The notes below the pieces were generated by a model, which ran no database searches, was not told where the DNA came from, and was given only the letters and a program-made list of their open reading frames with translations. Positions 7,618 to 63,047 of a stretch of DNA of 64,000 nt are shown here, one piece after another (the first letter of the stretch is position 1; each line of letters starts with the position of its first letter). Made by a program: the position numbers and the translations under genes. The stretch is from positions 13,134 through 77,133 of IMG/VR virus record IMGVR_UViG_3300022821_000011; one strand, written 5' to 3'. The stretch is from a virus (Duplodnaviria > Heunggongvirae > Uroviricota > Caudoviricetes).

Positions 7618-7711
7618 TGGTACTCCCACCAGGATTCGAACCTGGGACGCTCTCTAATCTGGAGACGATGCTGAATATAAGTCAGGTGTTTTACCGCTAA
7701 ACTATGGGAGT
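7618..7711 (-). tRNA. Type II tRNA with a long variable arm; apparent anticodon UAU from loop CTTATAT, so identity is unclear (Leu, Tyr or Ser class)
   Basis: Acceptor ACTCCCA/TGGGAGT plus ACCA, T-arm CCAGG-TTCGAAT-CCTGG, 94 nt. Confidence 0.6.
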
Positions 7712-19078: not shown

Positions 19079-20111
19079 TTAAAACCTACAAAAATTTAAA
19101 TGGTGGAACTTTTCTTTTAACACTATGCTTTTTCATATATATCTTATATTCTTTTAGCTTTTTTTCATATAGCTTTATATTTTCATCATATTCATCAAGT
19201 TTATCTTTAATATAGATTTCAGCATGTTTTTCAGAATCAAACAATATATCTGAAACAAAATTTTTAGTATAATCAGAAACCTTAAACCACATACAAAAAA
19301 ATCCATAATTATATTCAATATTATATTTATTATAAGCAGTTTGATCATTTACAATTCTATATGATCGCTTGGTTGGCTTATACGGCTTTATTAATTTATT
19401 TGAACTCATAATTCTTTTATTATCCATTCTTCTTTGATTTCAAGTTCTAGACATATATATTCATCTGAATATTCATCATATTTAAATCGATAACCCCAGC
19501 GTTCTCCATCATTATCTCCTTCATCTGAAGAAAAACAAATATCGCCAACACATTTGTTTTCAATCAAAATGTCAATTGTTTCTGGAATGCTACTTAAAAA
19601 ATCCATATGTTCATTTGCGTCACTATCAAATTCAATAGTTTTTCTGTCAATATCATATGCAATAAAATGACCTTCTTTATTTACAACCTTATCAATTTTA
19701 TCAAAAACTTCTAATGACACTTTTACTGTATTCTTAACACAATTTATAGTCCACATAATCTATTCCTTTATATGCGATGAAATTATACTTTTTAAATGAT
19801 GATACAATGCAGTAGTTCCACTATGAAGATCATGATGCTTTTCTATATCATCGCAAAGATCATTTAATAAACACTCAGAAGTAAAGTTCAAATTTTTCCA
19901 ATTTGGAATTGGTGTATTATTGTCCATTAAATCGCTACTTTTCTTTTAAGTCGAACATCACCTTCATCCATATAATCATCACCAGCATATTCTGAAAAAG
20001 TTTTATATAGTTCATTCCAAACTACATCAATTTCACAAACAGTCATTTCTATATAAGTATGATCTGATGCTGGTACTAAAATAGTTTCTTTCATAATATA
20101 TTTCCTTTTAG

Positions 20112-20201
20112 TGGAGGAAGGAGCGGGATTCGAACCCGCGGAACCTTGCGGTTCGTCTGCTTTCAAAACAGAAGCCTTAAGCCAGACTCGGCCACCCTTC
20201 C
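20112..20201 (-). tRNA. tRNA-Ser (UGA), type II
   Basis: TGGCCGAGT...GG D-arm, anticodon stem TCTGT/GCAGA, loop TTTGAAA, variable hairpin GAAC-CGCAAG-GTTC. Confidence 0.8.
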
Positions 20202-20982
20202 AATATTATTTTACATTTAATTTTTCGAAAAGAAGTTTCCATTTTTCTTCTGGAGTTTCTGTTACAATAGCATTTACAATTTCAACTAATGTATCATGAT
20301 ATTTTTCTGGATGTCGAAAATAAAAACTTGCATATGTGCTATCAAACGAATCATCTTCATCATAATGATATAGAGGATGATCTCTCATTGCTTCGAAAAC
20401 TTCTTCATAAGCTTCTCTGTTTCCACCACCACATCTAGTATAAACAACAAGATGATCTTCTGTCAAATAAGCATCTCTAAATCTTCCAAAATCTACTGAT
20501 GTTAATTCTAAAACACCTAAAACCAATGGAGAAATTGCATTAACTCCAAATGTCATATTATATAAACTCATTTTATTAATCCAATGTCGTTGTAGTTTTT
20601 TTAAGTCTTATGTGAGAAACAGTCCAATTATTACTTTCAATAGTTTGTTTTATATCATTTTCAAATTCTTCAACTTCTTTATCATTTTTACAATTAAAAT
20701 TTCCAGAAAATTCATCCCCAGAGTCTTCAATAGTAACAATGAATGTATATGAGTCTGCCATAATATATCATCCTTAATAAATAAGAGACGTATCAGTTAT
20801 ACGTTCCATTAAATCAAATATAGCCCACGCTTGACAACCCAAACACATTGCTTCATGGCGATCACATCGATCACCATATATTTCTGTTAAAACTCTAGCC
20901 TGTTTATTAAGAGCTTCTTCTCTTAGGTTTCTAAGTTTCTTTTTTTTTCATTTTATATCCTTAATCGCTCATAAAGCATTTA

Positions 20983-21046
20983 GGAAGTCCTTGAAAGTCA
21001 TAGTTTTATCCATTTGGAACTATTAATACTTTCAAGGACCTCAATG
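20983..21046. repeat. Conserved hairpin element, copy 4
   Basis: GGAAGTCCTTGAAAGT...ACTTTCAAGGACCTCAATG. Confidence 0.75.
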
Positions 21047-21120
21047 TTGCGCCAGGTGGAATTGAACCAGCCGATTTCCGGATAATGAGTCCAGCGAGAT
21101 GACCTCTTCTCTACAGCGCG
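21047..21120 (-). tRNA. tRNA-like with anticodon CAU, a C1:A72 mismatch and T37 (initiator-like or degenerate)
   Basis: U8A9 present, D-arm GAGA-AGAGGTCA-TCTC, anticodon stem CTGGA/TCCGG, loop CTCATTA, T-loop TTCAATT. Confidence 0.45.
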
Positions 21121-21731
21121 TTACTTTTTTCTTTTTTAAGATAATCTTTTACATAATAATTTAATATTTCATCTGTGTTATGAATAGGTTTATGTGTTTT
21201 TTCAAAAGCTTTTTCTATTTTTCTTAATTTTAGAATTGTAGAACGTTTTGGCCTACCTGCTAATACTTTTTTAATAGACGATATTTCAAACACCGGATCT
21301 TTTGTTGAAGCATAAGCATATGGATAATTTCCAGTCCATATTTTAAAAGAACCAATATATAAATGCTCATATGAAGACTTACTATAAAAAATCAAATCAT
21401 TTTCTGCTGCTTTTATAAAAAAATCATCTAAAAGAGAATTATATTTATTATTCATTGACCAAAATCGTGGCGAACAAAGCTTTATTCTATCAAAAAATGT
21501 AAGTGGTTCAAATTGCATTATTTTTCCTCACGATGTTTAAAATCTCTTTTGAAGATATAATTTCACATTTATTTTCAATTTCACTAATTCTTTTCTTTGG
21601 TATATCATAATGATCTTTATGAAACCAACATTTTTTTATATTCAAATCAATAGCCATTTTATGAAGATTTTCTATTGAATATGGTATACAAACTAAATGT
21701 CTTTTTTTATCTGTATAATATTTCATTATGC

Positions 21732-35794: not shown

Positions 35795-36805
35795 TTACCT
35801 GTCACTCCCTTGTTTACGTGTTCTTACACCTTTATTTATCTGTGCTAATGAAACAGATTTTTGTCCCTGGGCACCTTTATAATTTGATTTATAACCAGAA
35901 TTCTGTTTCTTTGCTACTTTTTTAACCTGTTTAGTTGTATTAGAAGTAGATCTACTTGGCATAATATTAGTAGGTCTAGATGCTCTAGAAGTAGCTGCTT
36001 TAACATCATTTGTAGATGGAGCTGCATAATTATCTGGAGTAGGACTATTTGATACTGGTACTGCTGCTGCTGTTGGAGCAGGTGATCTAGAACGATTTGG
36101 CGTTCTATCTCTTCCAATATTAGCTACTCTAGATGCCTTTTCGCGGGCCACGCGTTTAGCTACTTCTGTATTAGATAATGTTCTTGCAGCATTATCTCTA
36201 ATTTTTTGATCTGTTCCATTATCAACACCGGGATGCTGATCTCCAGGTGGGGCATTTCCAGCTATACCTCTTGGTGGAGCTTGCATACGCCTACTTTGTA
36301 ATCCTGGCCTTGGTGTAGTTGCTGGTGGAACTGCTGTAGGAGCTCTAACTGTCTTTTGAAGACCATCATTACTAGCATCTGGTCCTTGCTTACCTGGCAT
36401 ACCAGAAAATGGTGGTTTGCCGTTAGTTGCAGGTGCTCCTGACGAAGTAACACGCGAATTTGTTTTGGTTGAAACCGGCCCTCTTACAGGAACAGCAACT
36501 CTATTTTGGCCAGCTACATTTCGAGCATCTGATGCAGTTGTATTATTATTATCTTTTATAGCTTTATCAACAGCATCTCTAGTTGAAGTAGCTGGTTTAA
36601 CTGGTTTTGTTTTAATTGGGTCACGATTTAATGGTGATGTTTTACTATTAGTGCCTGAAACTTCAGCTTTCTTAGCTCCATTTAATTTTTTCATAATATT
36701 AGAAAAAATATTACTAATTAAATCATTTGCACCCTGTTCTTTAAGATACTTTGGGCTAGACATCAAAGTTTTTAATATCTTTTTAGAATAATCTTCTTTA
36801 GTCAT
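35795..36805 (-). CDS. Low-complexity Ser/Thr/Pro/Ala/Asn-rich protein
   Basis: Compositional bias only. Confidence 0.4.
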   Translation of the reverse strand: MTKEDYSKKILKTLMSSPKYLKEQGANDLISNIFSNIMKKLNGAKKAEVSGTNSKTSPLNRDPIKTKPVKPATSTRDAVDKAIKDNNNTTASDARNVAGQNRVAVPVRGPVSTKTNSRVTSSGAPATNGKPPFSGMPGKQGPDASNDGLQKTVRAPTAVPPATTPRPGLQSRRMQAPPRGIAGNAPPGDQHPGVDNGTDQKIRDNAARTLSNTEVAKRVAREKASRVANIGRDRTPNRSRSPAPTAAAVPVSNSPTPDNYAAPSTNDVKAATSRASRPTNIMPSRSTSNTTKQVKKVAKKQNSGYKSNYKGAQGQKSVSLAQINKGVRTRKQGSDR

Positions 36806-38078: not shown

Positions 38079-39458
38079 TTATACAAGAACATCATTAAAC
38101 TTCTCTTTATCAAATTTTTGACCAAATTCTGTATCATCAAAAACAGGGCCATCCATAATATCTTGAGCTGAACCCTCAACATCATAAAGTCTCATCTTTG
38201 GCCTGTCTACACCAATCACAAATCTTCTATACATTGTAGGATCTGCATATCTATTTTTAAGTTGTTTTACAATAATTTGATTCATTTCTTGTAATTCTTC
38301 TGTTGAAATCAAAGCAAACATCAAATCAGCTGTTGCTGGTAAACCAAAACTTTCTGATGTGTCAGTAAGATCAATATCAGATGAGTTATATCCACCTCTA
38401 GTAGTTTGAGTTGCTGTTACTACTGGCACATTACATTCAACAGCGAGCCCTCTTAATTCTTCAGCAATAGCTTTTACATATGTATATGAATTAGCATTAG
38501 AGCCTTGTTTAATCCTTGATGAAATACATATATTCAAATAATCAATATAGATAATATCTGGTATAAAATTTCTTTTTGATTTCAACTCATTCAAAAGAGC
38601 TCTAAAATGAGCTGCTCCGGCAGAAGCAGTTGGATATTCTTCAATTATTAGTCTACCTATAGACTTTTCTTTTATTTTATCAATTCTTTTTTGATAAATA
38701 GATTTTGGTATTGTTTCAAAATCAGTAATAGGAATATCTAAAAGATTGGCGTCAATTCTTTCACCAATCTTTTCTTCTGACATTTCTAAAGTAATATAAA
38801 GAACATTTTTTCCCTGAATAAAATTTGCTGCTGCGCAATGACACATAAACAAACTTTTGCCAACCCCAGTTCCTGCCAAAATAACATTAAGAGATTTTCT
38901 TGATAAACCACCTCTTGTTATTTTATTAAAATAATCTAAATCAAAAGGAACTTTTTCTTCTTTTCTATGATAAAAATCAAATCTATCATCAGAATCTTCA
39001 ATATAATCATGCCCAATAGAATTATTGAACGATACGCCAAGTGCATCTGATAAAAGTTGAGGAATTGCTCCTTTTAATAGACCATCTTTTTTCTCTTTTT
39101 CATCAATAATAGAAATAGAATTCATAATAGCATTATACAATGCTTTTTCTTGACAAAAATTCTCAGTAGTATCAAGAAGCCATTGAGAATCATTTTCACT
39201 CTCGCTTGGTTTAAAATGTTCTAATTCTTCTACGATTTCATAATAAAGATTTTCTGGCAGCCCTTCTTTTCCAGATATATCAACTTTTAATGCTTCAATA
39301 GAAGGTGGTTGATTATATTTTCCAATATAAGAATTTAATATATGAAAAATTGCTTTATATTTTCTATCAGAAAAATATTCATCTTTTAAATGCGGTATTA
39401 CTTTTCTAGAATAATCTTTATTAAAGATTAAATTTGATAGTATTGTTCTTTCTAACAC
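38079..39458 (-). CDS. gp41: Replicative DNA helicase, T4 gp41-like (DnaB family)
   Basis: Walker A ILAGTGVGKS; DnaB C-terminal domain motifs. Confidence 0.8.
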   Translation of the reverse strand: MLERTILSNLIFNKDYSRKVIPHLKDEYFSDRKYKAIFHILNSYIGKYNQPPSIEALKVDISGKEGLPENLYYEIVEELEHFKPSESENDSQWLLDTTENFCQEKALYNAIMNSISIIDEKEKKDGLLKGAIPQLLSDALGVSFNNSIGHDYIEDSDDRFDFYHRKEEKVPFDLDYFNKITRGGLSRKSLNVILAGTGVGKSLFMCHCAAANFIQGKNVLYITLEMSEEKIGERIDANLLDIPITDFETIPKSIYQKRIDKIKEKSIGRLIIEEYPTASAGAAHFRALLNELKSKRNFIPDIIYIDYLNICISSRIKQGSNANSYTYVKAIAEELRGLAVECNVPVVTATQTTRGGYNSSDIDLTDTSESFGLPATADLMFALISTEELQEMNQIIVKQLKNRYADPTMYRRFVIGVDRPKMRLYDVEGSAQDIMDGPVFDDTEFGQKFDKEKFNDVLV

Positions 39459-39662
39459 TCATTTTCACTTTCCATAGCTTTAGCATACTTTCTAATATAC
39501 CTCATAAACAAAATAGCTTTATCTTTTGCATTAAATGTTGCATTTCCTATATCAGAAATCGGTACAGGAAAGATAAAACCCTTTTCTGTATTATACCACA
39601 ATTCACCATCTCTGTAATATAAAAATGTAACTACTTGATCATTATTTACATGATCTTTTATA

Positions 39663-40223
39663 TTAATCTTCTTCATTTTCCAACTCATCTTCTATTACTT
39701 CTTCATCATTAGACATTATATTACCAGTTCCAATCGCATACTTATTGTAAATATGTTCTTTGAAATCTGTATTTTCAAATAGATTCTTCCAAAATCTAAA
39801 GTTTGTTTTAATATCTTTTTCTAACATAGGTTCACCGATTAACTCTCCAGTATTTTTATTTACTGCTTGAAGACCATTAGATCTACTAATCTTTACTTTT
39901 GTTAAATATCCACCATCTACAGCTGTTTCTGATAATCCAGAATATTTACTAATGCCACCATCAAAATTGACGGTAATAGGAATTTTTGATTTTTCTTTTA
40001 CAAATCTAGATTTTTCAACGTTAATTATGAAATTGTACCCAGCCAGAGCTTTATCAGAATCCTTTTCTTGTTGTCTACCTATGATCCATACAGTATCAGC
40101 AGAATACATCACTCCAGTATTATGAGTAATGGCTCCATTTTCTAAAGCATAGTGTTGTACATCTTCTACAGATATATCATATACATTTTTGTTTCCCACA
40201 CTTTTAACACTTTTAATTTTCAT
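39663..40223 (-). CDS. uvsX: Split-intein C-terminal half (about 35 aa ending ...VQHYALENGAITHN) fused to the UvsX C-extein (TGVMYSADTVWIIG...)
   Basis: Intein block G (HN) followed by a +1 Thr. The C-extein aligns with T4 UvsX from TGPMYSADTV onward. Confidence 0.75.
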   Translation of the reverse strand: MKIKSVKSVGNKNVYDISVEDVQHYALENGAITHNTGVMYSADTVWIIGRQQEKDSDKALAGYNFIINVEKSRFVKEKSKIPITVNFDGGISKYSGLSETAVDGGYLTKVKISRSNGLQAVNKNTGELIGEPMLEKDIKTNFRFWKNLFENTDFKEHIYNKYAIGTGNIMSNDEEVIEDELENEED

Positions 40224-41067
40224 TCTTTTTACACCTTTCGTTGTGCCATCTTTTTATATTTCCAACAGTACTTTCTATTCCACAAATAAAACAGACTTCT
40301 CTTTTTTGTTTAATAGAAGAAGGATTTTTCCAAACAGACAAATCATATTTCTCTATATCTTTAATTTTTATTCTAATGCATCTTCCATCTTGTATGTTTT
40401 TTAACATAAGAAAACCTTTTCTTCCTATCTTTTTTTTATGTTCTTCTGATTTAGGAATGCCCATTCTATCTAAACTCATTTTTAATTTTACTTCTTTGGA
40501 ACGAACGCTTCCTAAATTTTTATTAGATATGAGTTTTTTTGTTTTTTTAGAATGTTTTTTTCCATAAAATGGATTTTTTTCTCCTGATATATTATTAGAT
40601 ATAGATGCTTTATGTTCTTCACTCAGCTTCCTGCCTTTTGTCACACCTACCCACTCATTATTTAAAACTCTAGGATGATCTCTTGGAAGTCTTGCAATTT
40701 TTCCAGTCTCTAGATTTTTATATGTAGCATAATTTGAATCTAAATAATTACTAATAGTCGCAATCGATTTATTAAAATATTCAGGTGATGCGACAACACC
40801 ATAAAAAATGTGAAGTTCTTTTTCCTTTTCTAAACACTTTTCGTATGAATCAAAACTTTCTAAAATTTCTATTTCATAATCACAGTATTCAACTATATTT
40901 TTGTATTCTGGATCACAAGAGGATCCAAAATATTCGTTGTTTCTAGAATCATAAATTTTATTATTTCTAATAATACAATTAGATTTGCTTCCAATATACC
41001 TGTTTGGAAATCTATTTCTATCAATTTTAATTAAATAGACTATATTGCTATATCTGCTGTGTAACAT
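40213..41067 (-). CDS. Free-standing GIY-YIG homing endonuclease with NUMOD3-like repeats, inserted between the two uvsX split-intein halves
   Basis: VYLIKIDRNRFPNRYIGSKSN...YFGSS GIY-YIG core; repeated SEEHKxxIS NUMOD-like motifs. It is in a different frame from both uvsX pieces. Confidence 0.7.
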   Translation of the reverse strand: MLHSRYSNIVYLIKIDRNRFPNRYIGSKSNCIIRNNKIYDSRNNEYFGSSCDPEYKNIVEYCDYEIEILESFDSYEKCLEKEKELHIFYGVVASPEYFNKSIATISNYLDSNYATYKNLETGKIARLPRDHPRVLNNEWVGVTKGRKLSEEHKASISNNISGEKNPFYGKKHSKKTKKLISNKNLGSVRSKEVKLKMSLDRMGIPKSEEHKKKIGRKGFLMLKNIQDGRCIRIKIKDIEKYDLSVWKNPSSIKQKREVCFICGIESTVGNIKRWHNERCKKNEN

Positions 41068-41999
41068 ATATCGGTTCCTTTTTTGTTGGTGCCGATATTT
41101 ATTATTCTGGTGTTTTCTACTAAATTCTTGGCTTCAATCCATCCATCAGATGTTAAAAATCTATGATCGTGTGATACAGTACATTTATGTCCATCATCAA
41201 ATTCAATTTCATAACACTCTTTAAATCCTTCTTCTAATGTCTGAGGGTTCCAAGTGTGTGTTACTTTTTTATTACCTTCTAATGTTTCAACAAAATCATC
41301 AATAGTTATATTTTCAATAGATTTTAAACCATTAGCAGTCAATATCTTAGTGCCTTCTACAACACATCCGCCACTAACAACTTCTCTACTATACATTTCC
41401 AATGATTTATACGTATGGTTCACAACCATCATTGGAATATCTTTTAAAGTAAGGTGTGGAGTTATCATTCTAAATAAAGATTTCATGGCTTTGGCTCTAG
41501 TCATATCAGCTACAACTTTTCCATCTAATGCATCATCAATTTCTTTTCTAGATGCTAAATTACCAATCGAATCTATTATAATACAAGCTTTATCACCACG
41601 CTCTAAACCATTTAACTGAGTCATCAAATCATGCTTAAGTTTTTCAATATCTGTAATTGGTGTATGAACAGTTCTTATTTTATCTGTTTCAAAAGAATCG
41701 AAATAAGATTCTGGAGTTCCAAATTCTGAATCATAAAACAAAATAGCTCCTTCTGGATATTGCTTTTGATAAGCTGAGCCAATTAAAAGAGAAAAAGCAG
41801 ATTTGAAATGCTTTGATGGACCGGCTAATACTGTAAGGCCAGGAGAAAGTCCTCCATCAATTCTGCCAGATAAAGCAACATTAACCATTGGCACTGGTGT
41901 TGGAATCATATCTTTCTTACCGTATACTTTTGATTCAGTAAGAATTGCAGTTTCTTTAATAGTAGAGTTTTTTAAAAGTTTTTTTACGAGTTCGTTCAT
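41040..41999 (-). CDS. uvsX: UvsX N-extein (aa 1-211, RecA-like) fused to the split-intein N-terminal half (starts CVVEGTKILTANG...)
   Basis: MVNVALSGRIDGGLSPGLTVLAGPSKHFKS is strongly T4 UvsX-like. The extein ends ...VVSGG, followed by Cys1 of the Hint domain. Confidence 0.8.
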   Translation of the reverse strand: MNELVKKLLKNSTIKETAILTESKVYGKKDMIPTPVPMVNVALSGRIDGGLSPGLTVLAGPSKHFKSAFSLLIGSAYQKQYPEGAILFYDSEFGTPESYFDSFETDKIRTVHTPITDIEKLKHDLMTQLNGLERGDKACIIIDSIGNLASRKEIDDALDGKVVADMTRAKAMKSLFRMITPHLTLKDIPMMVVNHTYKSLEMYSREVVSGGCVVEGTKILTANGLKSIENITIDDFVETLEGNKKVTHTWNPQTLEEGFKECYEIEFDDGHKCTVSHDHRFLTSDGWIEAKNLVENTRIINIGTNKKGTDICYTADIAI

Positions 42000-42272
42000 T
42001 TAATTTCCTTATTCATTAAGCAATAACAATAATTCTTTTTTATATTTTTCTAATACTTCTTTTCTATTTGGCCAATGTATATATGGCTTATCATCATCTT
42101 TCATAAGTTTTTCTATTAATGGCATTATCATTTTTTCTATTTTAAATAATTTATTAGTTGTTTTAACTCGTTTATCATTTAATTCTTTTTCTTTATTTGA
42201 TACTGCTTCTAAATTTGTTTCATCTATAGCAGAAAAACCAAAATCCCAGTCATCATCTTTCATTATTATATC

Positions 42273-44786
42273 CTATCCAAAAAATTCATCTAATGTCGCA
42301 GTTTTTTCAAGCGTCCATCCAATACTTGTTGTTATTTTTTTCACTGGATTTGCAAATGATTTATCAAATTGCTTATCATAATCAATGAATGATGTTAACC
42401 CAAATTCTTCAGGCAATTCTCCATGAGTTCCAATAACATTTTCATGTAGAGGATTTGGTACTTTAAGATAACAATATTTTATTTTATCACCACTCTTAAT
42501 CTTTTCCACTTTATTAGAAAGATTATGATCATCTACCATTTTATTATAAAGAATAGATGCTCTAACATGCATTGGAGTTCCAGTTCTATATAACTTAGCA
42601 GAATCAGCATATTCATTTATATTTTTAACTCCACTTGGAGTTGCAACGTCTTCAAAATTCATGCTGTTAAAATCTGTTTTAAAATTGGATATGAAATTCC
42701 AAAGCTTTTTCTGATCATCTTCCATTATAATTTTAATAGCATCTTTTATTTTGTCACGACATTTCATTGGTGTAGATGATCTAACAGATTCAATCCCTTT
42801 AATTTTAAGTACTGGTTCTGATAATCTAACTCCTTCATCATCAAACACATTCAAAACATATTTCTTTTTAGCTGTCCATATACCTCGATTAGCTATACAC
42901 TCTCTTTTCATATGCATCATTTGTTCATATGCGTTCATGACATCTGCTAATTCTTCATAGCTCTTGTCGATAAAAGGTATTATTTTCTTTTTACAAGAAA
43001 CATCAATAAAGTCTATAATTTCTTCTGTACTTTTTTCTGAACAGACTCTATTTACAAGCTCTTCGAAATTAACATATATTGAATCTGTATCAGCAGCAAT
43101 AACATAATCTTTATCTGTATTCAAAACCTTATTTAGATACTTATTAATTCTATTATCAATCCATTTTGTAGATAATTGTCCTGAAGAAGTTATAGCTTCT
43201 GCTAAAGCAAGAGAAAACCATCTAAAATATTCATTCGATAAAGCGCCATAAGCCGAGTTTAAAATAATCTTTTTTGCTAATTGCATATTATGATATTTAG
43301 AAATTTCATATTTGTACTTTGGATCTTTAGTTGTTTCATATAATCCTTTTGCTTCAATCATAAGTTCTTTGTATCGTTTACGATCATCATACATTTTTTT
43401 CATAAGTATTGGAAGAAAGCCAGACTTATCTTTTTTAAAGAAACAGCCATTTGGTGTAAAAGTTTGATTATTACTAAATGCTTTTACTACATCTTGGTAT
43501 TTCTCTAATTTTCCATCTATTATTTCGTCTAAAATTGATGAATTGTCTCTAAATTTAGGATCATAACTCGCTAATGTTTCTGGAGATATATTGTATTGCA
43601 TGATTAAATGCGGATACAGCGAGTCAAGGTCAAAAGAGCCAACCCATTTATACATACCAGGAATTGGTTCTTTAACATAGCCGCCCTCGATTTGATAGCT
43701 CTTAGTATTCTTCATATTATGAGGAATGACTATATTAGAATCTCTCAAATGATTGTGGATAATAGTGTCCCACATTCTAACTGATGTAAAAGCATCTAAA
43801 TAATTTGTAAGAGTCTCATATGCGATTGTAAAAATCTGAGAAAGAAAATTCAGCTTTTCATCTAATCTATAAACAAGATCAACGTCATGAATATTATATT
43901 CAATAAATTTTTGATAATTGTTTTTATATAAACTTTGAAGATCGCCATATTCAGAATAATCTATTTTTCTCTCACCAAGTTCGACTTGAGCTATAAAATC
44001 TAGTTTATACGATTCTTGGTTTTTAAAACTAAACTTTTTATAAACTTGCAAATAATCAAGAGTAGAAATACCAGCTAATATATAACACTGACTTATATCA
44101 TCAATATAACTATTATTAACTTCATCTAAAATTCTCCATGGTGAAAGCTCTTCGGCTCTATCATAACCAAGAATTCTAGTAATTCTATTAACTAAATATG
44201 GTATATCAAAAAATTCTATATTCCAACCAGTAACTACATCTGGAGAATAATATGGAGAATTCCAAACTTTAAGAAATTTATCTAATAAATCAGCTTCATC
44301 TGCACATTTTATATAACGAACATTTGGTTTATGCTCTTTATAATCACCACAGCCAAAAACAACAACATGATCTTTTTTACGCAAAGATATAGCAGTCACT
44401 TCTTTATTTGCTGTTTTAATATTTGGAAAACCGTCATCAGAAACAGTTTCAATATCAATTGTAACAATAGAAATATCGTTAGTATTATATTTTATATTTG
44501 AATATGAATCATAAAGATAATTATATAAGTAATGACTATAGCCATATATTTTAAAACTATCTACATCATTATATTTTTTAATGAAATTACGGGCATCATA
44601 GATAGTATCAAAATCGATTCTGTCTACGTTTTCACCAAATAATGTTTTGTATTTAGATTCTTTTTTTGTAGGAACAAAAAAGTAAGGTTTAAACTTAATT
44701 TTCTTTTCTACTTTATTTCCGTTTTTATAACCTTTAACAAGTATATAATTTTTATGTTGGAATACATTAGTATAAAATTCAGACAT
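42273..44786 (-). CDS. gp43: Family B DNA polymerase (T4 gp43-like)
   Basis: Exo I DIETVSDDG, pol motif A DLDSLYPHLIMQ, motif B KIILNSAYGAL, motif C YVIAADTDSIYV; SD AAGGAAG. Confidence 0.9.
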   Translation of the reverse strand: MSEFYTNVFQHKNYILVKGYKNGNKVEKKIKFKPYFFVPTKKESKYKTLFGENVDRIDFDTIYDARNFIKKYNDVDSFKIYGYSHYLYNYLYDSYSNIKYNTNDISIVTIDIETVSDDGFPNIKTANKEVTAISLRKKDHVVVFGCGDYKEHKPNVRYIKCADEADLLDKFLKVWNSPYYSPDVVTGWNIEFFDIPYLVNRITRILGYDRAEELSPWRILDEVNNSYIDDISQCYILAGISTLDYLQVYKKFSFKNQESYKLDFIAQVELGERKIDYSEYGDLQSLYKNNYQKFIEYNIHDVDLVYRLDEKLNFLSQIFTIAYETLTNYLDAFTSVRMWDTIIHNHLRDSNIVIPHNMKNTKSYQIEGGYVKEPIPGMYKWVGSFDLDSLYPHLIMQYNISPETLASYDPKFRDNSSILDEIIDGKLEKYQDVVKAFSNNQTFTPNGCFFKKDKSGFLPILMKKMYDDRKRYKELMIEAKGLYETTKDPKYKYEISKYHNMQLAKKIILNSAYGALSNEYFRWFSLALAEAITSSGQLSTKWIDNRINKYLNKVLNTDKDYVIAADTDSIYVNFEELVNRVCSEKSTEEIIDFIDVSCKKKIIPFIDKSYEELADVMNAYEQMMHMKRECIANRGIWTAKKKYVLNVFDDEGVRLSEPVLKIKGIESVRSSTPMKCRDKIKDAIKIIMEDDQKKLWNFISNFKTDFNSMNFEDVATPSGVKNINEYADSAKLYRTGTPMHVRASILYNKMVDDHNLSNKVEKIKSGDKIKYCYLKVPNPLHENVIGTHGELPEEFGLTSFIDYDKQFDKSFANPVKKITTSIGWTLEKTATLDEFFG

Positions 44787-62129: not shown

Positions 62130-62500
62130 CTTGATCAAAATAAATTATTAGACGAACCCAAACTAAATTTATTGGAGTATTCTGTTGCTAGGCTACTCCA
62201 GGCCCCAGTACTCTAGTTTCTAATCCACAAAGGGATCAGGCAGCAAGAGCCAAAGGTGCAAAGTTATCGTTTGCGTTTAGTTTCTAGCCAGTCGGCCAAC
62301 CAGTTAACTCCAGTTACTCATTACGCACCCAATCGATCCCAGTTCATCCCCATCAAAAGAAGTGCGACCTTTGTGCACCAAGTCTTTTCAAACACCAATA
62401 GAATATTCTAGCACTTCTTTTGGTGGAGATGGGCGGATTCGAACCGCCGTGTTAAGTGTTTTTTGTTTCCTTCAACGTCAACATATTATTTATATCACAT
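62130..62500 (-). ncRNA. ssrA: Two-piece (circularly permuted) tmRNA gene. The acceptor piece (T-arm GGCGG-TTCGAAT-CCGCC, CATCTCC, ACCA) lies upstream of the coding piece (5' GGGGATGAACTGGGATCGA...). Tag reading frame 62274..62236 is GCA AAC GAT AAC TTT GCA CCT TTG GCT CTT GCT GCC TGA, giving ANDNFAPLALAA
   Basis: The 5' GGGGATG pairs with the 3' CATCTCC. A D-loop analogue GGGATCGA is present. The tag ends ALAA followed by a stop. A 10-bp hairpin AAAGAAGTGC...GCACTTCTTT lies between the pieces. The promoter is at 62489..62517. Confidence 0.65.
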
Positions 62501-62517
62501 TATTTGTTTGGTGTCAA
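62489..62517 (-). promoter_or_regulatory. Sigma70-like promoter TTGACA-17-TATAAA driving the tmRNA
   Basis: Plus-strand tgtcaa at 62512-62517. Confidence 0.5.
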
Positions 62518-62519
62518 CA

Positions 62520-63047
62520 CTTATTTAGTTATCTTTAATAATGTATCACCAATTAATTCTTTTTTTGAAAAAAATTGAACACTCCAATCATAATAAAATT
62601 CTCTTCCACGATAATCATGAATAAAGATCAATGGATTCTTTTTTGTAGATTTTATAAAAATTGTAGCTAATGTAGCAGCCCTAGCTATACCATCTACAAA
62701 AACAAATCAGAATCCCATATATCAAATTTAGGATTTATATAATGATCTAAACCGCAAGCCATTTCTTCGTTTGGAGTTGCAAATTTATAAAAATCAATAT
62801 CAACATTTAATTTAAACATTGTATATGAATAGTTCTTTTTTGGTTGTTCTTTTAATTTTTTGCTAACAATAGAATACCATTCTGGATTATGCTCTATTGA
62901 ATATAAAAATTGGGTGTCTTTAAGTTGTTTTAAAAACCATAAAGTAGACCCACCAGATCCCCATTCGACTATTTTAGCATTATCAGGAAGCGCTTTTAAA
63001 GAATTTTCTAAATAATCTAATTCATTGTTTCTCATCAATGGAATCAA
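62520..63047 (-). pseudogene. Class I SAM-dependent methyltransferase-like gene interrupted by a frameshift near the T-run at about 62700
   Basis: ORF 62694..63047 carries VEWGSGGSTLWF (motif I). The alternate frame continues ...DGIARAATLATIFIK...IFIHDYRG. Confidence 0.4.

Follow-up and report, generated by a model that had tools for sequence, protein, structure and literature searches.

A fractured uvsX, with a probable split intein and a divergent GIY-YIG-fold endonuclease gene at its break, in an uncultured T4-like phage and in other phages

What becomes of a phage recombinase when its gene has been broken in two and another gene stands in the breach? The question is raised by positions 39663-41999 of a 64,000-nucleotide stretch of an uncultured T4-like phage (positions 13,134 to 77,133 of IMG/VR record IMGVR_UViG_3300022821_000011, the whole stretch being referred to here as the window), in which the coding sequence for the recombinase UvsX is divided between two open reading frames (ORFs) with a third between them. 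An original prediction, generated by a model from the letters and the ORF translations, took this for a 'fractured gene', and that description is retained here: the gene is broken at an intein site, the intein halves carry their catalytic residues, and a free-standing endonuclease gene lies between them. The account that we favor, and to which we would assign a probability of about 0.85, is of a selfish cassette at a conserved GG/TG site (the slash marks the insertion point), consisting of a split class-1 intein together with the gene for an I-TevI/Seg-like endonuclease.

The broken gene and its intein halves

The locus consists of three close-packed ORFs, all on the minus strand (Table 1), with exactly the coordinates first proposed; the strand, which the prediction did not give, is an addition. 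In the first ORF (the N-half), ...EMYSREVVSGG of UvsX passes directly into CVVEGTKILTANG..., and translation continues for 108 residues after the UvsX part before meeting a stop codon. The last ORF (the C-half) starts as MKIKSVKSVGNKNVYDISVEDVQHYALENGAITHN and continues as TGVMYSADTVWIIGR..., that is, it reads MKIKSVKSV...HYALENGAITHN and then TGVMYSADTV.... That the UvsX N-terminus runs through ...VVSGG into an N-terminal intein block and then stops, and that some 35 amino acids (aa) of C-terminal intein sequence are fused in frame to the rest of UvsX, had both been claimed and are both borne out by these ORFs. The endonuclease ORF overlaps the N-half by 28 nucleotides (nt) and the C-half by 11 nt.

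Table 1. Features of the fractured uvsX locus, in coordinates of the window and ordered 5' to 3' along the coding strand
Feature	Coordinates	Strand	Details
N-half ORF	41040..41999	minus	319 aa; UvsX-N (211 aa) and N-intein (108 aa), then stop
UvsX N-extein, aa 1-211	41367..41999	minus	Walker A GPSKHFKS through ...EVVSGG
N-intein (IntN), 108 aa	41043..41366	minus	Cys1 codon 41366-41364; block A CVVEGTKIL; block B ...TVSHDHRF; stop codon 41042-41040
RNA hairpin over endonuclease translation start	41062..41104	minus	inner stem 41098-41092/41074-41068; outer stem 41104-41100/41066-41062
Late-promoter-like motif AATAAATA	41096..41103	minus	7/8 match to T4-type late promoter TATAAATA
Shine-Dalgarno AAGGA of endonuclease ORF	41080-41076	minus	8 nt before endonuclease ATG
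Endonuclease ORF	40213..41067	minus	284 aa, different frame
GIY-YIG-fold domain, ~aa 1-110	41067-40738	minus	V10-Y11, Y24-I25-G26, E82, N99
NUMOD3, aa 145-181	40635-40525	minus	51.6 bits against a cut-off of 20.4; 9e-14
Shine-Dalgarno AAAGGTG of C-half ORF	40232..40238	minus	8 nt 5' of ATG, within last endonuclease codons
C-half ORF	39663..40223	minus	186 aa; C-intein (35 aa) and UvsX-C (151 aa)
C-intein (IntC), 35 aa, MKIKSVKSVGNKNVYDISVEDVQHYALENGAITHN	40119..40223	minus	block F VYDISV, block G THN
UvsX C-extein, 151 aa	39663..40118	minus	Thr+1 codon 40118-40116; begins TGVMYSADTV...; stop codon 39663-39665

With such an arrangement, sequencing or assembly error needs to be considered, i.e. 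that a contiguous intein, whether of mini-intein size or with an endonuclease domain in frame, has been made to look split by spurious frameshifts. The N-half and C-half do share a reading frame, as such an origin would have it, but that frame is interrupted by about 30 stop codons on the way from one to the other. The endonuclease, for its part, is read in a different frame and has a Shine-Dalgarno sequence to itself, and eight assemblies of diverse sample and source (ENA, JGI and Logan) agree with one another at every position of the 2337 nt. The same three-ORF layout is also present in finished genomes of cultured phages (below). Given the stops and the identical assemblies, the split layout is not a frameshift or assembly artefact, an origin whose probability is negligible, and the correction that the original prediction had feared, one that would fuse the ORFs, is not to be had from any single frameshift.

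Joining residues 1-211 of the N-half to residues 36-186 of the C-half in silico gives a UvsX of 362 aa (40.4 kDa) that aligns with T4 UvsX (PDB 3io5) over residues 29-357 at E = 2e-99 and has no gap at the junction, where SGG/TGVMYSAD faces GGG/TGPMYSAD; the placing of the insertion point between GG and TG by comparison with T4 is accordingly upheld. The joined protein also matches two other phage UvsX structures. Profile matches point the same way: the N-extein is matched by PHROG 97 (UvsX-like recombinase, 1.4e-58) and PHROG 8337 (4e-73), PHROG 18112 spans IntC and the C-extein (1.8e-59), and PF21134 (T4_UVSX_C) matches the C-extein at 4.4e-5, its 23.9 bits being just under the 27-bit cut-off. 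The match of the spliced product to T4 UvsX is colinear and takes in both the ATPase core and the C-terminal domain. By alignment with Escherichia coli RecA, the GG that ends the N-extein corresponds to the GG at the C-terminal end of the RecA DNA-binding loop L2, in which case the insertion would be in a conserved and functionally critical site, of the kind that inteins typically occupy. For practical purposes, the peptide predicted across the spliced junction is EVVSGGTGVMYSADTVWIIGR (monoisotopic mass 2196.09 Da), and the DNA across the corresponding intein-less junction is ...GTTAGTGGCGGA/ACTGGAGTGATG....

The interrupting sequences are recognizable as the two parts of an intein. IntN scores 27.4 bits with TIGR01445 (intein_Nterm) and IntC 25 bits with TIGR01443 (intein_Cterm), both exceeding the curated NCBIfam cut-offs (24.5 and 15.6, respectively), Pfam Intein_splicing (PF14890) matches the two halves at profile positions 34-93 and 122-155, and blocks A, B, F and G, on which the original prediction depended, are all present. 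Fused to each other, the halves match the solved structures of the Npu DnaE (1e-7) and gp41-1 (1.5e-5) inteins, and also Spl DnaX. When a profile of 28 fused family members was compared with the PDB, each of the 30 chains matched was an intein or an intein-like (HINT) domain, the best being the gp41-1 intein (6qaz; 4.5e-14, over its full length) and the next Npu DnaE (3.6e-12). Single-sequence AlphaFold2 modeling of the fused halves gave a confidence (pLDDT) of 33, too low to use. Residue for residue, IntC can be aligned with that of Npu DnaE (4lx3_B, 36 aa), which puts the split at the canonical position for endonuclease insertion. The net charge of IntN is -8 and that of the first 13 residues of IntC +4.

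The residues expected to act in splicing are among those most strictly kept. The N-terminal nucleophile, Cys212 of the N-half (Cys1 of the intein), directly follows ...VVSGG and is invariant in the family alignment (A3), as are His68 of block B, the Ser65 at -3 to it (Ser-x-x-His), and D16, H34 and N35 of blocks F and G, with T+1 (T36) present in at least 90% of the A3 sequences. Among unique sequences, conservation is at least 95% for Cys1 and the block-B Ser and His (53 IntN), and for the block-F Asp, the His-Asn pair and Thr+1 (49 IntC). The block-B Ser in place of Thr is a conservative, family-wide variant. By its residues and by the curated hidden Markov models (HMMs), the intein belongs to class 1 (HINT) and is split at the canonical site, and splicing is predicted for it.

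These residues also bear on the idea that the UvsX fragments function without being covalently joined, the intein halves serving just as a non-covalent dimerization module, in the way that the split NrdA of Aeh1, which has no intein, manages. Fracturing of genes by homing endonucleases with no intein involved is documented (Aeh1 nrdA and Aeromonas phage 25 gp43), and the departure from Thr in block B could be counted in favor of such an assembly. A docking module, however, has need of neither C1, Thr+1, the penultimate His nor the terminal Asn, all of them among the residues conserved at 95% or above; the break is inside the ATPase core, beside the position that aligns with RecA loop L2, where some 140 extra residues would probably interfere; and the contiguous cis mini-inteins found at the same site in other loci (below) must splice if functional UvsX is to be made. 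Assembly of this type is unlikely.

The endonuclease gene and its expression signals

The 284-aa product of the middle ORF (isoelectric point 9.6) has an N-terminal catalytic domain of the GIY-YIG alpha/beta fold, matches PHROG 'homing endonuclease' families, has a Cys/His motif (CxxC...H...C) at its C-terminus, and has 225 detected homologues. In an alignment of 67 sequences, V10, Y11 (at least 90%), Y24-I25-G26, E82 and N99 are invariant or nearly so. In a profile comparison (hhalign), the half of the catalytic domain that holds Glu and Asn can be aligned with T4 SegA at 88.9% probability (E = 2.4e-6), pairwise similarity of the two proteins being marginal (BLASTP E = 0.01). TIGR01453 matches via the linker region only (5.5e-7, under its cut-off), and precomputed PF01541 assignments are absent from the best 120 of the 225 homologues. 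Because the matches in hand are to NUMOD3 and to the TIGR01453 linker, and the catalytic Arg has not been identified, the protein is better termed a divergent GIY-YIG-fold, NUMOD3-containing protein than a member of PF01541, with endonuclease activity predicted for it. What had been claimed, a 284-aa GIY-YIG/NUMOD endonuclease in another frame, therefore stands as to frame, size, fold and NUMOD3; of the GIY-YIG catalytic residues whose possible absence had been a concern, the Tyr, Tyr, Glu and Asn are conserved, with the canonical Arg the one not identified. All three of the further homologues whose context was examined are inside a fractured uvsX, between the gp43 side and gp41. A search of the window for a second copy of the endonuclease or intein gave one weak match near 21.4 kb, dismissed as chance since there is no corresponding ORF.

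Endonuclease genes of this class are also carried by group I introns, and T4-like phages have such introns with GIY-YIG endonucleases, as do the recA genes of Bacillus phages. Were the endonuclease gene here part of a self-splicing intron, uvsX would be repaired at the RNA level. In 39000-42600 there is no Rfam match even at E <= 1, and so no group I intron, and what flanks the endonuclease gene are intein halves that score above curated HMM cut-offs. RNA-level repair is scarcely credible.

Each of the three ORFs has its own Shine-Dalgarno sequence, and that of the endonuclease is in an unusual setting. The RNA over its translation start is predicted to fold into a hairpin with a perfect inner stem of 7 base pairs (AUAUCGG/CCGAUAU) and an outer stem that takes in the UG of the initiation codon, leaving AAGGA in the loop and the AUG (41067-41065) in the 3' arm. 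Over 111 nt its stability is -14.5 kcal/mol (z = -2.6; 2/200 shuffled sequences equally stable), with z = -3.8 for a 60-nt segment. The sequence AATAAATA, containing the sole ATAAATA within the element, adjoins the 5' side of the hairpin stem and overlaps its 5' arm; the exact late-promoter sequence TATAAATA is absent from the element. The last 17 aa of IntN (GTNKKGTDICYTADIAI) are the 5' leader of the endonuclease cassette, with its regulatory content, translated in frame to the first stop. Sigma-70-like sites are not enriched (14, against 20.3 in shuffled sequences), and no terminator is predicted between the ORFs. In related loci, ATAAATA is found in the corresponding position upstream of the endonuclease start, and no more than 45 nt from it, in about 19/32, and most have a hairpin that pairs with the AUG despite very different sequences.

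There is precedent for each of these features. Among the fractured genes of Dassa et al. 2009, hairpins were reported at 15/16 loci, TATAAATA in 10, and overlap of the endonuclease 3' end with the downstream start in 15 (PMC2677866). In the model for Aeh1 mobE cited there, transcripts reading through from upstream fold so as to block translation of the endonuclease, and late transcripts that start inside the hairpin permit it (PMC2677866). The hairpin, late-promoter motif and 3' overlap at the uvsX locus fit the 2009 pattern.

A family at one site: metagenomes, cultured phages and the window's own phage

From the original prediction, with its reference to marine metagenomic and cyanophage gp41 and NrdA loci, rarity might have been assumed; the uvsX arrangement turns out to be commoner, being present in no fewer than 142 contigs of IMG/VR and in about 19 phages in culture. 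The contigs were confirmed as relatives after a pattern scan of IMG/VR with the IntN alignment, and 80 loci were kept, in every one of which (80/80) the intein is at the same uvsX site, GG/C...HN/(T/S)G. Six (L062, L067-69 and L070-71) have a contiguous in-frame mini-intein of 130-160 aa. In 16 the intein is split with 3-150 nt between the halves and no endonuclease, in two (L024, L035) it is split with an endonuclease remnant, and in 53 the halves are 0.5-1.7 kb apart, the other three being on contigs that end ahead of the C-half. How a family of this size is seen depends on the search: a word-indexed protein search with the fused intein gave just two matches, and it is through the IMG/VR pattern scans and exhaustive phmmer that it becomes visible. 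The latter, run against 1.84 billion representatives (at 50% identity), yielded 52 proteins at E <= 1e-10, some of ~300 aa with IntN at ~212-300 (split N-halves) and others of 475-515 aa with the intein at ~215-305 (contiguous).

Some of the genes between the halves are full-length homologues of the window endonuclease. Others are NUMOD3 proteins with weak HNH matches under cut-off (L022, L040, L079), a protein with a Vsr-like (MTES_1575/DUF559) match under cut-off (L063), a DUF7487/CapR protein (L026), or two unclassified proteins, of 296 and 497 aa, that no Pfam family matches (L027 and L090). The presence of unrelated genes at the one split site suggests repeated replacement of the endonuclease. 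Loss is indicated as well. L088 has the endonuclease, which is missing from L089 and L080, 94-96% identical to L088 in the IntN-side flanks, apart from its final codons, which survive in L089; L024 has lost 447 nt from within the endonuclease and is otherwise 99% identical to L022; and in L011 (4034-4357) the IntN tail holds the endonuclease C-terminal motif ...RWHNENCKHK fused in frame. Comparison of these loci shows endonuclease loss with the split retained. IntC is not detectable in L051/L055.

Such decay, both the endonuclease remnants and the two loci with no detectable IntC, might suggest that a fractured uvsX is a pseudogene, inactivated by invasion of the endonuclease and with the recombinase dispensable or replaced by host RecA, the more so as uvsX is non-essential in T4. 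But the decay hits the endonuclease and not the intein or the exteins. In the window, the halves are full length with motifs intact and match T4 UvsX end to end. Median pairwise ratios of nonsynonymous to synonymous substitution (dN/dS) for IntN (0.23) and IntC (0.11) are close to those of the exteins (0.21 and 0.10); intein halves and exteins alike are under purifying selection, and the arrangement has been kept across very divergent phages and hosts. Inactivation is accordingly very improbable, and reconstitution by splicing of a gene held by a selfish cassette continues to be favored.

A more elaborate relative was encountered on contig Ga0645785_00194 (238.5 kb, JGI 3300075147; L175, 1-5303), where uvsX is in three pieces with two different split inteins, each with an endonuclease gene. 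The order is UvsX-N with IntN#1 (after ...NHIYMEQ), a 331-aa endonuclease, a 140-aa middle ORF composed of IntC#1, an 11-residue middle extein (SMYPKAIVSGG) and IntN#2, this second intein being of the window family, then a homologue of the window endonuclease, and finally IntC#2 with UvsX-C. The gp41 ORF downstream also looks to end in N-intein-like sequence (...ATQANR/CLSLDSIL...).

In cultured phages, this uvsX IntN is carried by 26 INPHARED records representing about 19 phages. The hosts include E. coli (HY03, NC_031047; ELT1; BYEP01; SYGD1; RPN226), Shigella (SP21535), Yersinia (TG1), Klebsiella (Lion_ER11), Proteus (Pm5461, NC_028762; PM2), Salmonella (CF-SP2, SEA1, pSe_SNUABM_01), Enterobacter (EnC07, UFV01), Pseudomonas (PspYZU05), Shewanella (Thanatos-1) and Vibrio (VmeM-32, EniLVp02). 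As in the window, the site is GG/C...HN/TG, the order of the three ORFs is unchanged, and intein and endonuclease are homologous, with identities to the window of 47-53% for IntN, 43-44% for the endonuclease and, for IntC of HY03 and Pm5461, ~75-85% judged by eye. Translation of the HY03 (99514-101999) and Pm5461 (19207-21534) loci gives the junctions GG/CV(I/V)AGTKI ... THN/TGVMYSAD and a homologous endonuclease. The differences are that these phages have enterobacterial Straboviridae backbones and hosts, in contrast to the uncultured phage of ~29% GC in the window, that short spacers separate their ORFs, which in the window overlap, and that their IntN is of 96 aa with no 17-aa tail. RefSeq and GenBank label the pieces 'DNA repair protein', 'homing endonuclease' and 'recombinase', and never intein; PHROG 8337 and PHROG 18112 amount to families of the N- and C-halves with their intein parts. 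Pm5461 has a further gene annotated 'homing endonuclease' (459 aa), immediately downstream of the C-half.

The phage in the window has no close relative in INPHARED. Its gp41 and gp43 are closest to those of cyanomyophages (60-62% and 48% identity, respectively), and its spliced UvsX shares 50-55% identity with the T-even type but only ~31% with that of cyanophages. Whole-gene replacement or extein co-conversion was considered as a source of this UvsX and rejected: in IMG/VR the nearest gp41 relatives (63-65%) have an uninterrupted uvsX with N-exteins 65-72% identical, so that the UvsX type is native to the clade. These uninterrupted genes, in the same position, are in effect empty sites. Among 80 loci selected by gp41, one (L157) has the intein, and there is no compositional island at the cassette in the window; the sporadic distribution of the uvsX intein is a hallmark of a homing element.

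As to the host, 26 transfer RNA (tRNA) genes are dispersed over 35 kb of the window (6-34661, minus strand), and at 62171-62521 (minus) there is a permuted two-piece transfer-messenger RNA (tmRNA) of alphaproteobacterial type, with tag peptide ANDNFAPLALAA, that scores 88 bits with RF01849 (cut-off 50) and 94.5 bits with RF04321 (cut-off 47). Type of tmRNA, tRNA set and low GC together hint at an alphaproteobacterial, possibly SAR11-like, host. The predicted tRNA-Ile(TAT) at 7618-7711 (minus) is, at 94 nt, unusually long for one that is not tRNA-Leu or tRNA-Ser, and may have an insertion or intron or be a mis-call. Other observations concern the neighborhood. Two small conserved ORFs on the minus strand bracket uvsX, neither with an NCBIfam match: one of 78 aa (74 aa in other gene calls) at 39452-39688, which overlaps the UvsX C-half at its stop and gp41 at its start, and one of 84 aa at 42009-42263. 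Further along, the ORF at 35795-36805 (minus) encodes 336 aa, with Pro, Ala, Ser, Thr and Arg abundant, and coincides with a local GC peak of ~44% against ~29% around it.

Taken as a whole, the material can be put tentatively, at somewhat under an even chance, in a wider frame: that the split intein of UvsX forms a large family undescribed in the searchable literature, and that all stages of the life cycle proposed for fractured genes are preserved in it at the one site, i.e. the contiguous mini-intein, the split form with an endonuclease gene of one of several unrelated types, endonuclease decay, the split form with no endonuclease, and uvsX in three pieces.

Proposed mechanism and comparison with known systems

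The sequence of events that we envisage starts with co-transcription of the three ORFs with the replication genes, as the lack of a predicted terminator between them would allow. A 35.5-kDa protein consisting of UvsX-N and IntN and a 21.0-kDa protein consisting of IntC and UvsX-C would be made separately, and the acidic IntN and the basic N-terminus of IntC would associate to form the HINT fold. Through Cys1, Thr+1 and the terminal Asn, protein trans-splicing would then release the 362-aa UvsX with its native ...SGG-TGVMY... junction. On read-through transcripts the hairpin would block translation of the endonuclease, which would be allowed on late transcripts starting in the 5' arm. In mixed infections the endonuclease would cut intein-less uvsX, and double-strand-break repair would copy in the whole cassette of IntN, endonuclease gene and IntC.

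Several considerations count against this account. Splicing and homing in the uvsX family are both things that we infer from sequence. Taken alone, each intein half scores under the PF14890 gathering score of 35.8 (21.1 and 20.2 bits), block B has Ser-x-x-His and not the usual Thr-x-x-His, and the 17-aa tail of IntN is non-conserved, with no counterpart in other family members. Many of the dN/dS pairs are near synonymous saturation. The endonuclease has no match to Pfam GIY-YIG (PF01541) even at E <= 1, and the equivalent of the canonical catalytic Arg (R27 of I-TevI) was not located in the 67-sequence alignment, there being an invariant Lys28 after YIG instead. The late-promoter-like motif matches at 7/8 only, and ATAAATA is not enriched across the window (44 found, 56 expected). 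T4 uvsX mutants are viable, and the viability of the cultured carriers is therefore no proof that UvsX is reconstituted in them.

If the account is correct, there are practical as well as conceptual consequences. Since the element occurs in ELT1 and SYGD1, which grow on E. coli K-12, natural trans-splicing and homing become directly testable by classical genetics, and in the cultured coliphages that have it, trans-splicing, the late timing of the endonuclease, and homing are amenable to the standard genetics of T4. The element is inside the very recombinase that homing by double-strand-break repair needs, and a mechanistic link may therefore exist between spread of the element and maturation of the protein that hosts it. 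Gain, exchange and loss of endonuclease and split intein at one site would be direct comparative evidence for the model of split-intein origin put forward in 2009. A natural family of canonically split inteins with Thr+1 and a Gly-Gly/Thr-Gly junction provides candidate orthogonal tools for protein ligation. The phage recombinase UvsX would join the genes known as fractured, and the RefSeq labels 'DNA repair protein' and 'recombinase' could be corrected.

Of known split inteins, those of Npu and Ssp DnaE are like the uvsX intein in being canonically split, with an IntC of 35-36 aa, an acidic IntN and a basic IntC N-terminus, and unlike it in having their halves at distant loci with no endonuclease between, and Cys rather than Thr at +1. 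The AceL-TerL and VidaL inteins, from Antarctic lake metagenomes and studied in the Mootz and Muir laboratories, are again natural split inteins in genes of T4-like phages, but their split is close to the N-terminus, leaving an IntN of 16-25 aa, whereas in the uvsX intein IntN is of 91-108 aa and IntC of 35 aa. The VidaL structure 6vgv is a weak match (5e-4) to the uvsX intein family profile. 'VidaL UvsX' inteins are reportedly listed among the atypically split inteins of these laboratories, and would be split near the N-terminus. The searchable literature yielded no paper in which uvsX is described as fractured or as carrying a split intein.

A connection of uvsX with a GIY-YIG homing endonuclease in a T4-like phage is itself familiar, as T4 SegA is a free-standing GIY-YIG endonuclease, encoded next to uvsX, that cleaves uvsX (PMC2988022); there, segA stands beside an intact uvsX and no intein is involved. 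The closest parallels are the fractured genes described by Dassa, London, Stoddard, Schueler-Furman and Pietrokovski in 2009 (NAR 37:2560; PMC2677866), for which the hosts named are gp41, IMPDH, DnaE, NrdA, NrdJ, ligase and terminase, UvsX being mentioned only as a neighboring ORF. In these cases (gp41-1, NrdJ-1 and IMPDH-1), as at the uvsX locus, the gene concerned acts in DNA metabolism, belongs to a T4-like marine phage and is broken at an intein site; a split intein, a free-standing GIY-YIG/NUMOD ORF, the hairpin with late-promoter motif and the 3' overlap are likewise common to both. The uvsX locus differs from them in its host gene, in having Thr as the +1 nucleophile and Ser in block B, and in a GIY-YIG domain so divergent that PF01541 misses it. 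From this perspective, uvsX of the window is a textbook case of a fractured gene, its host gene being absent from the list with which such genes were originally described.

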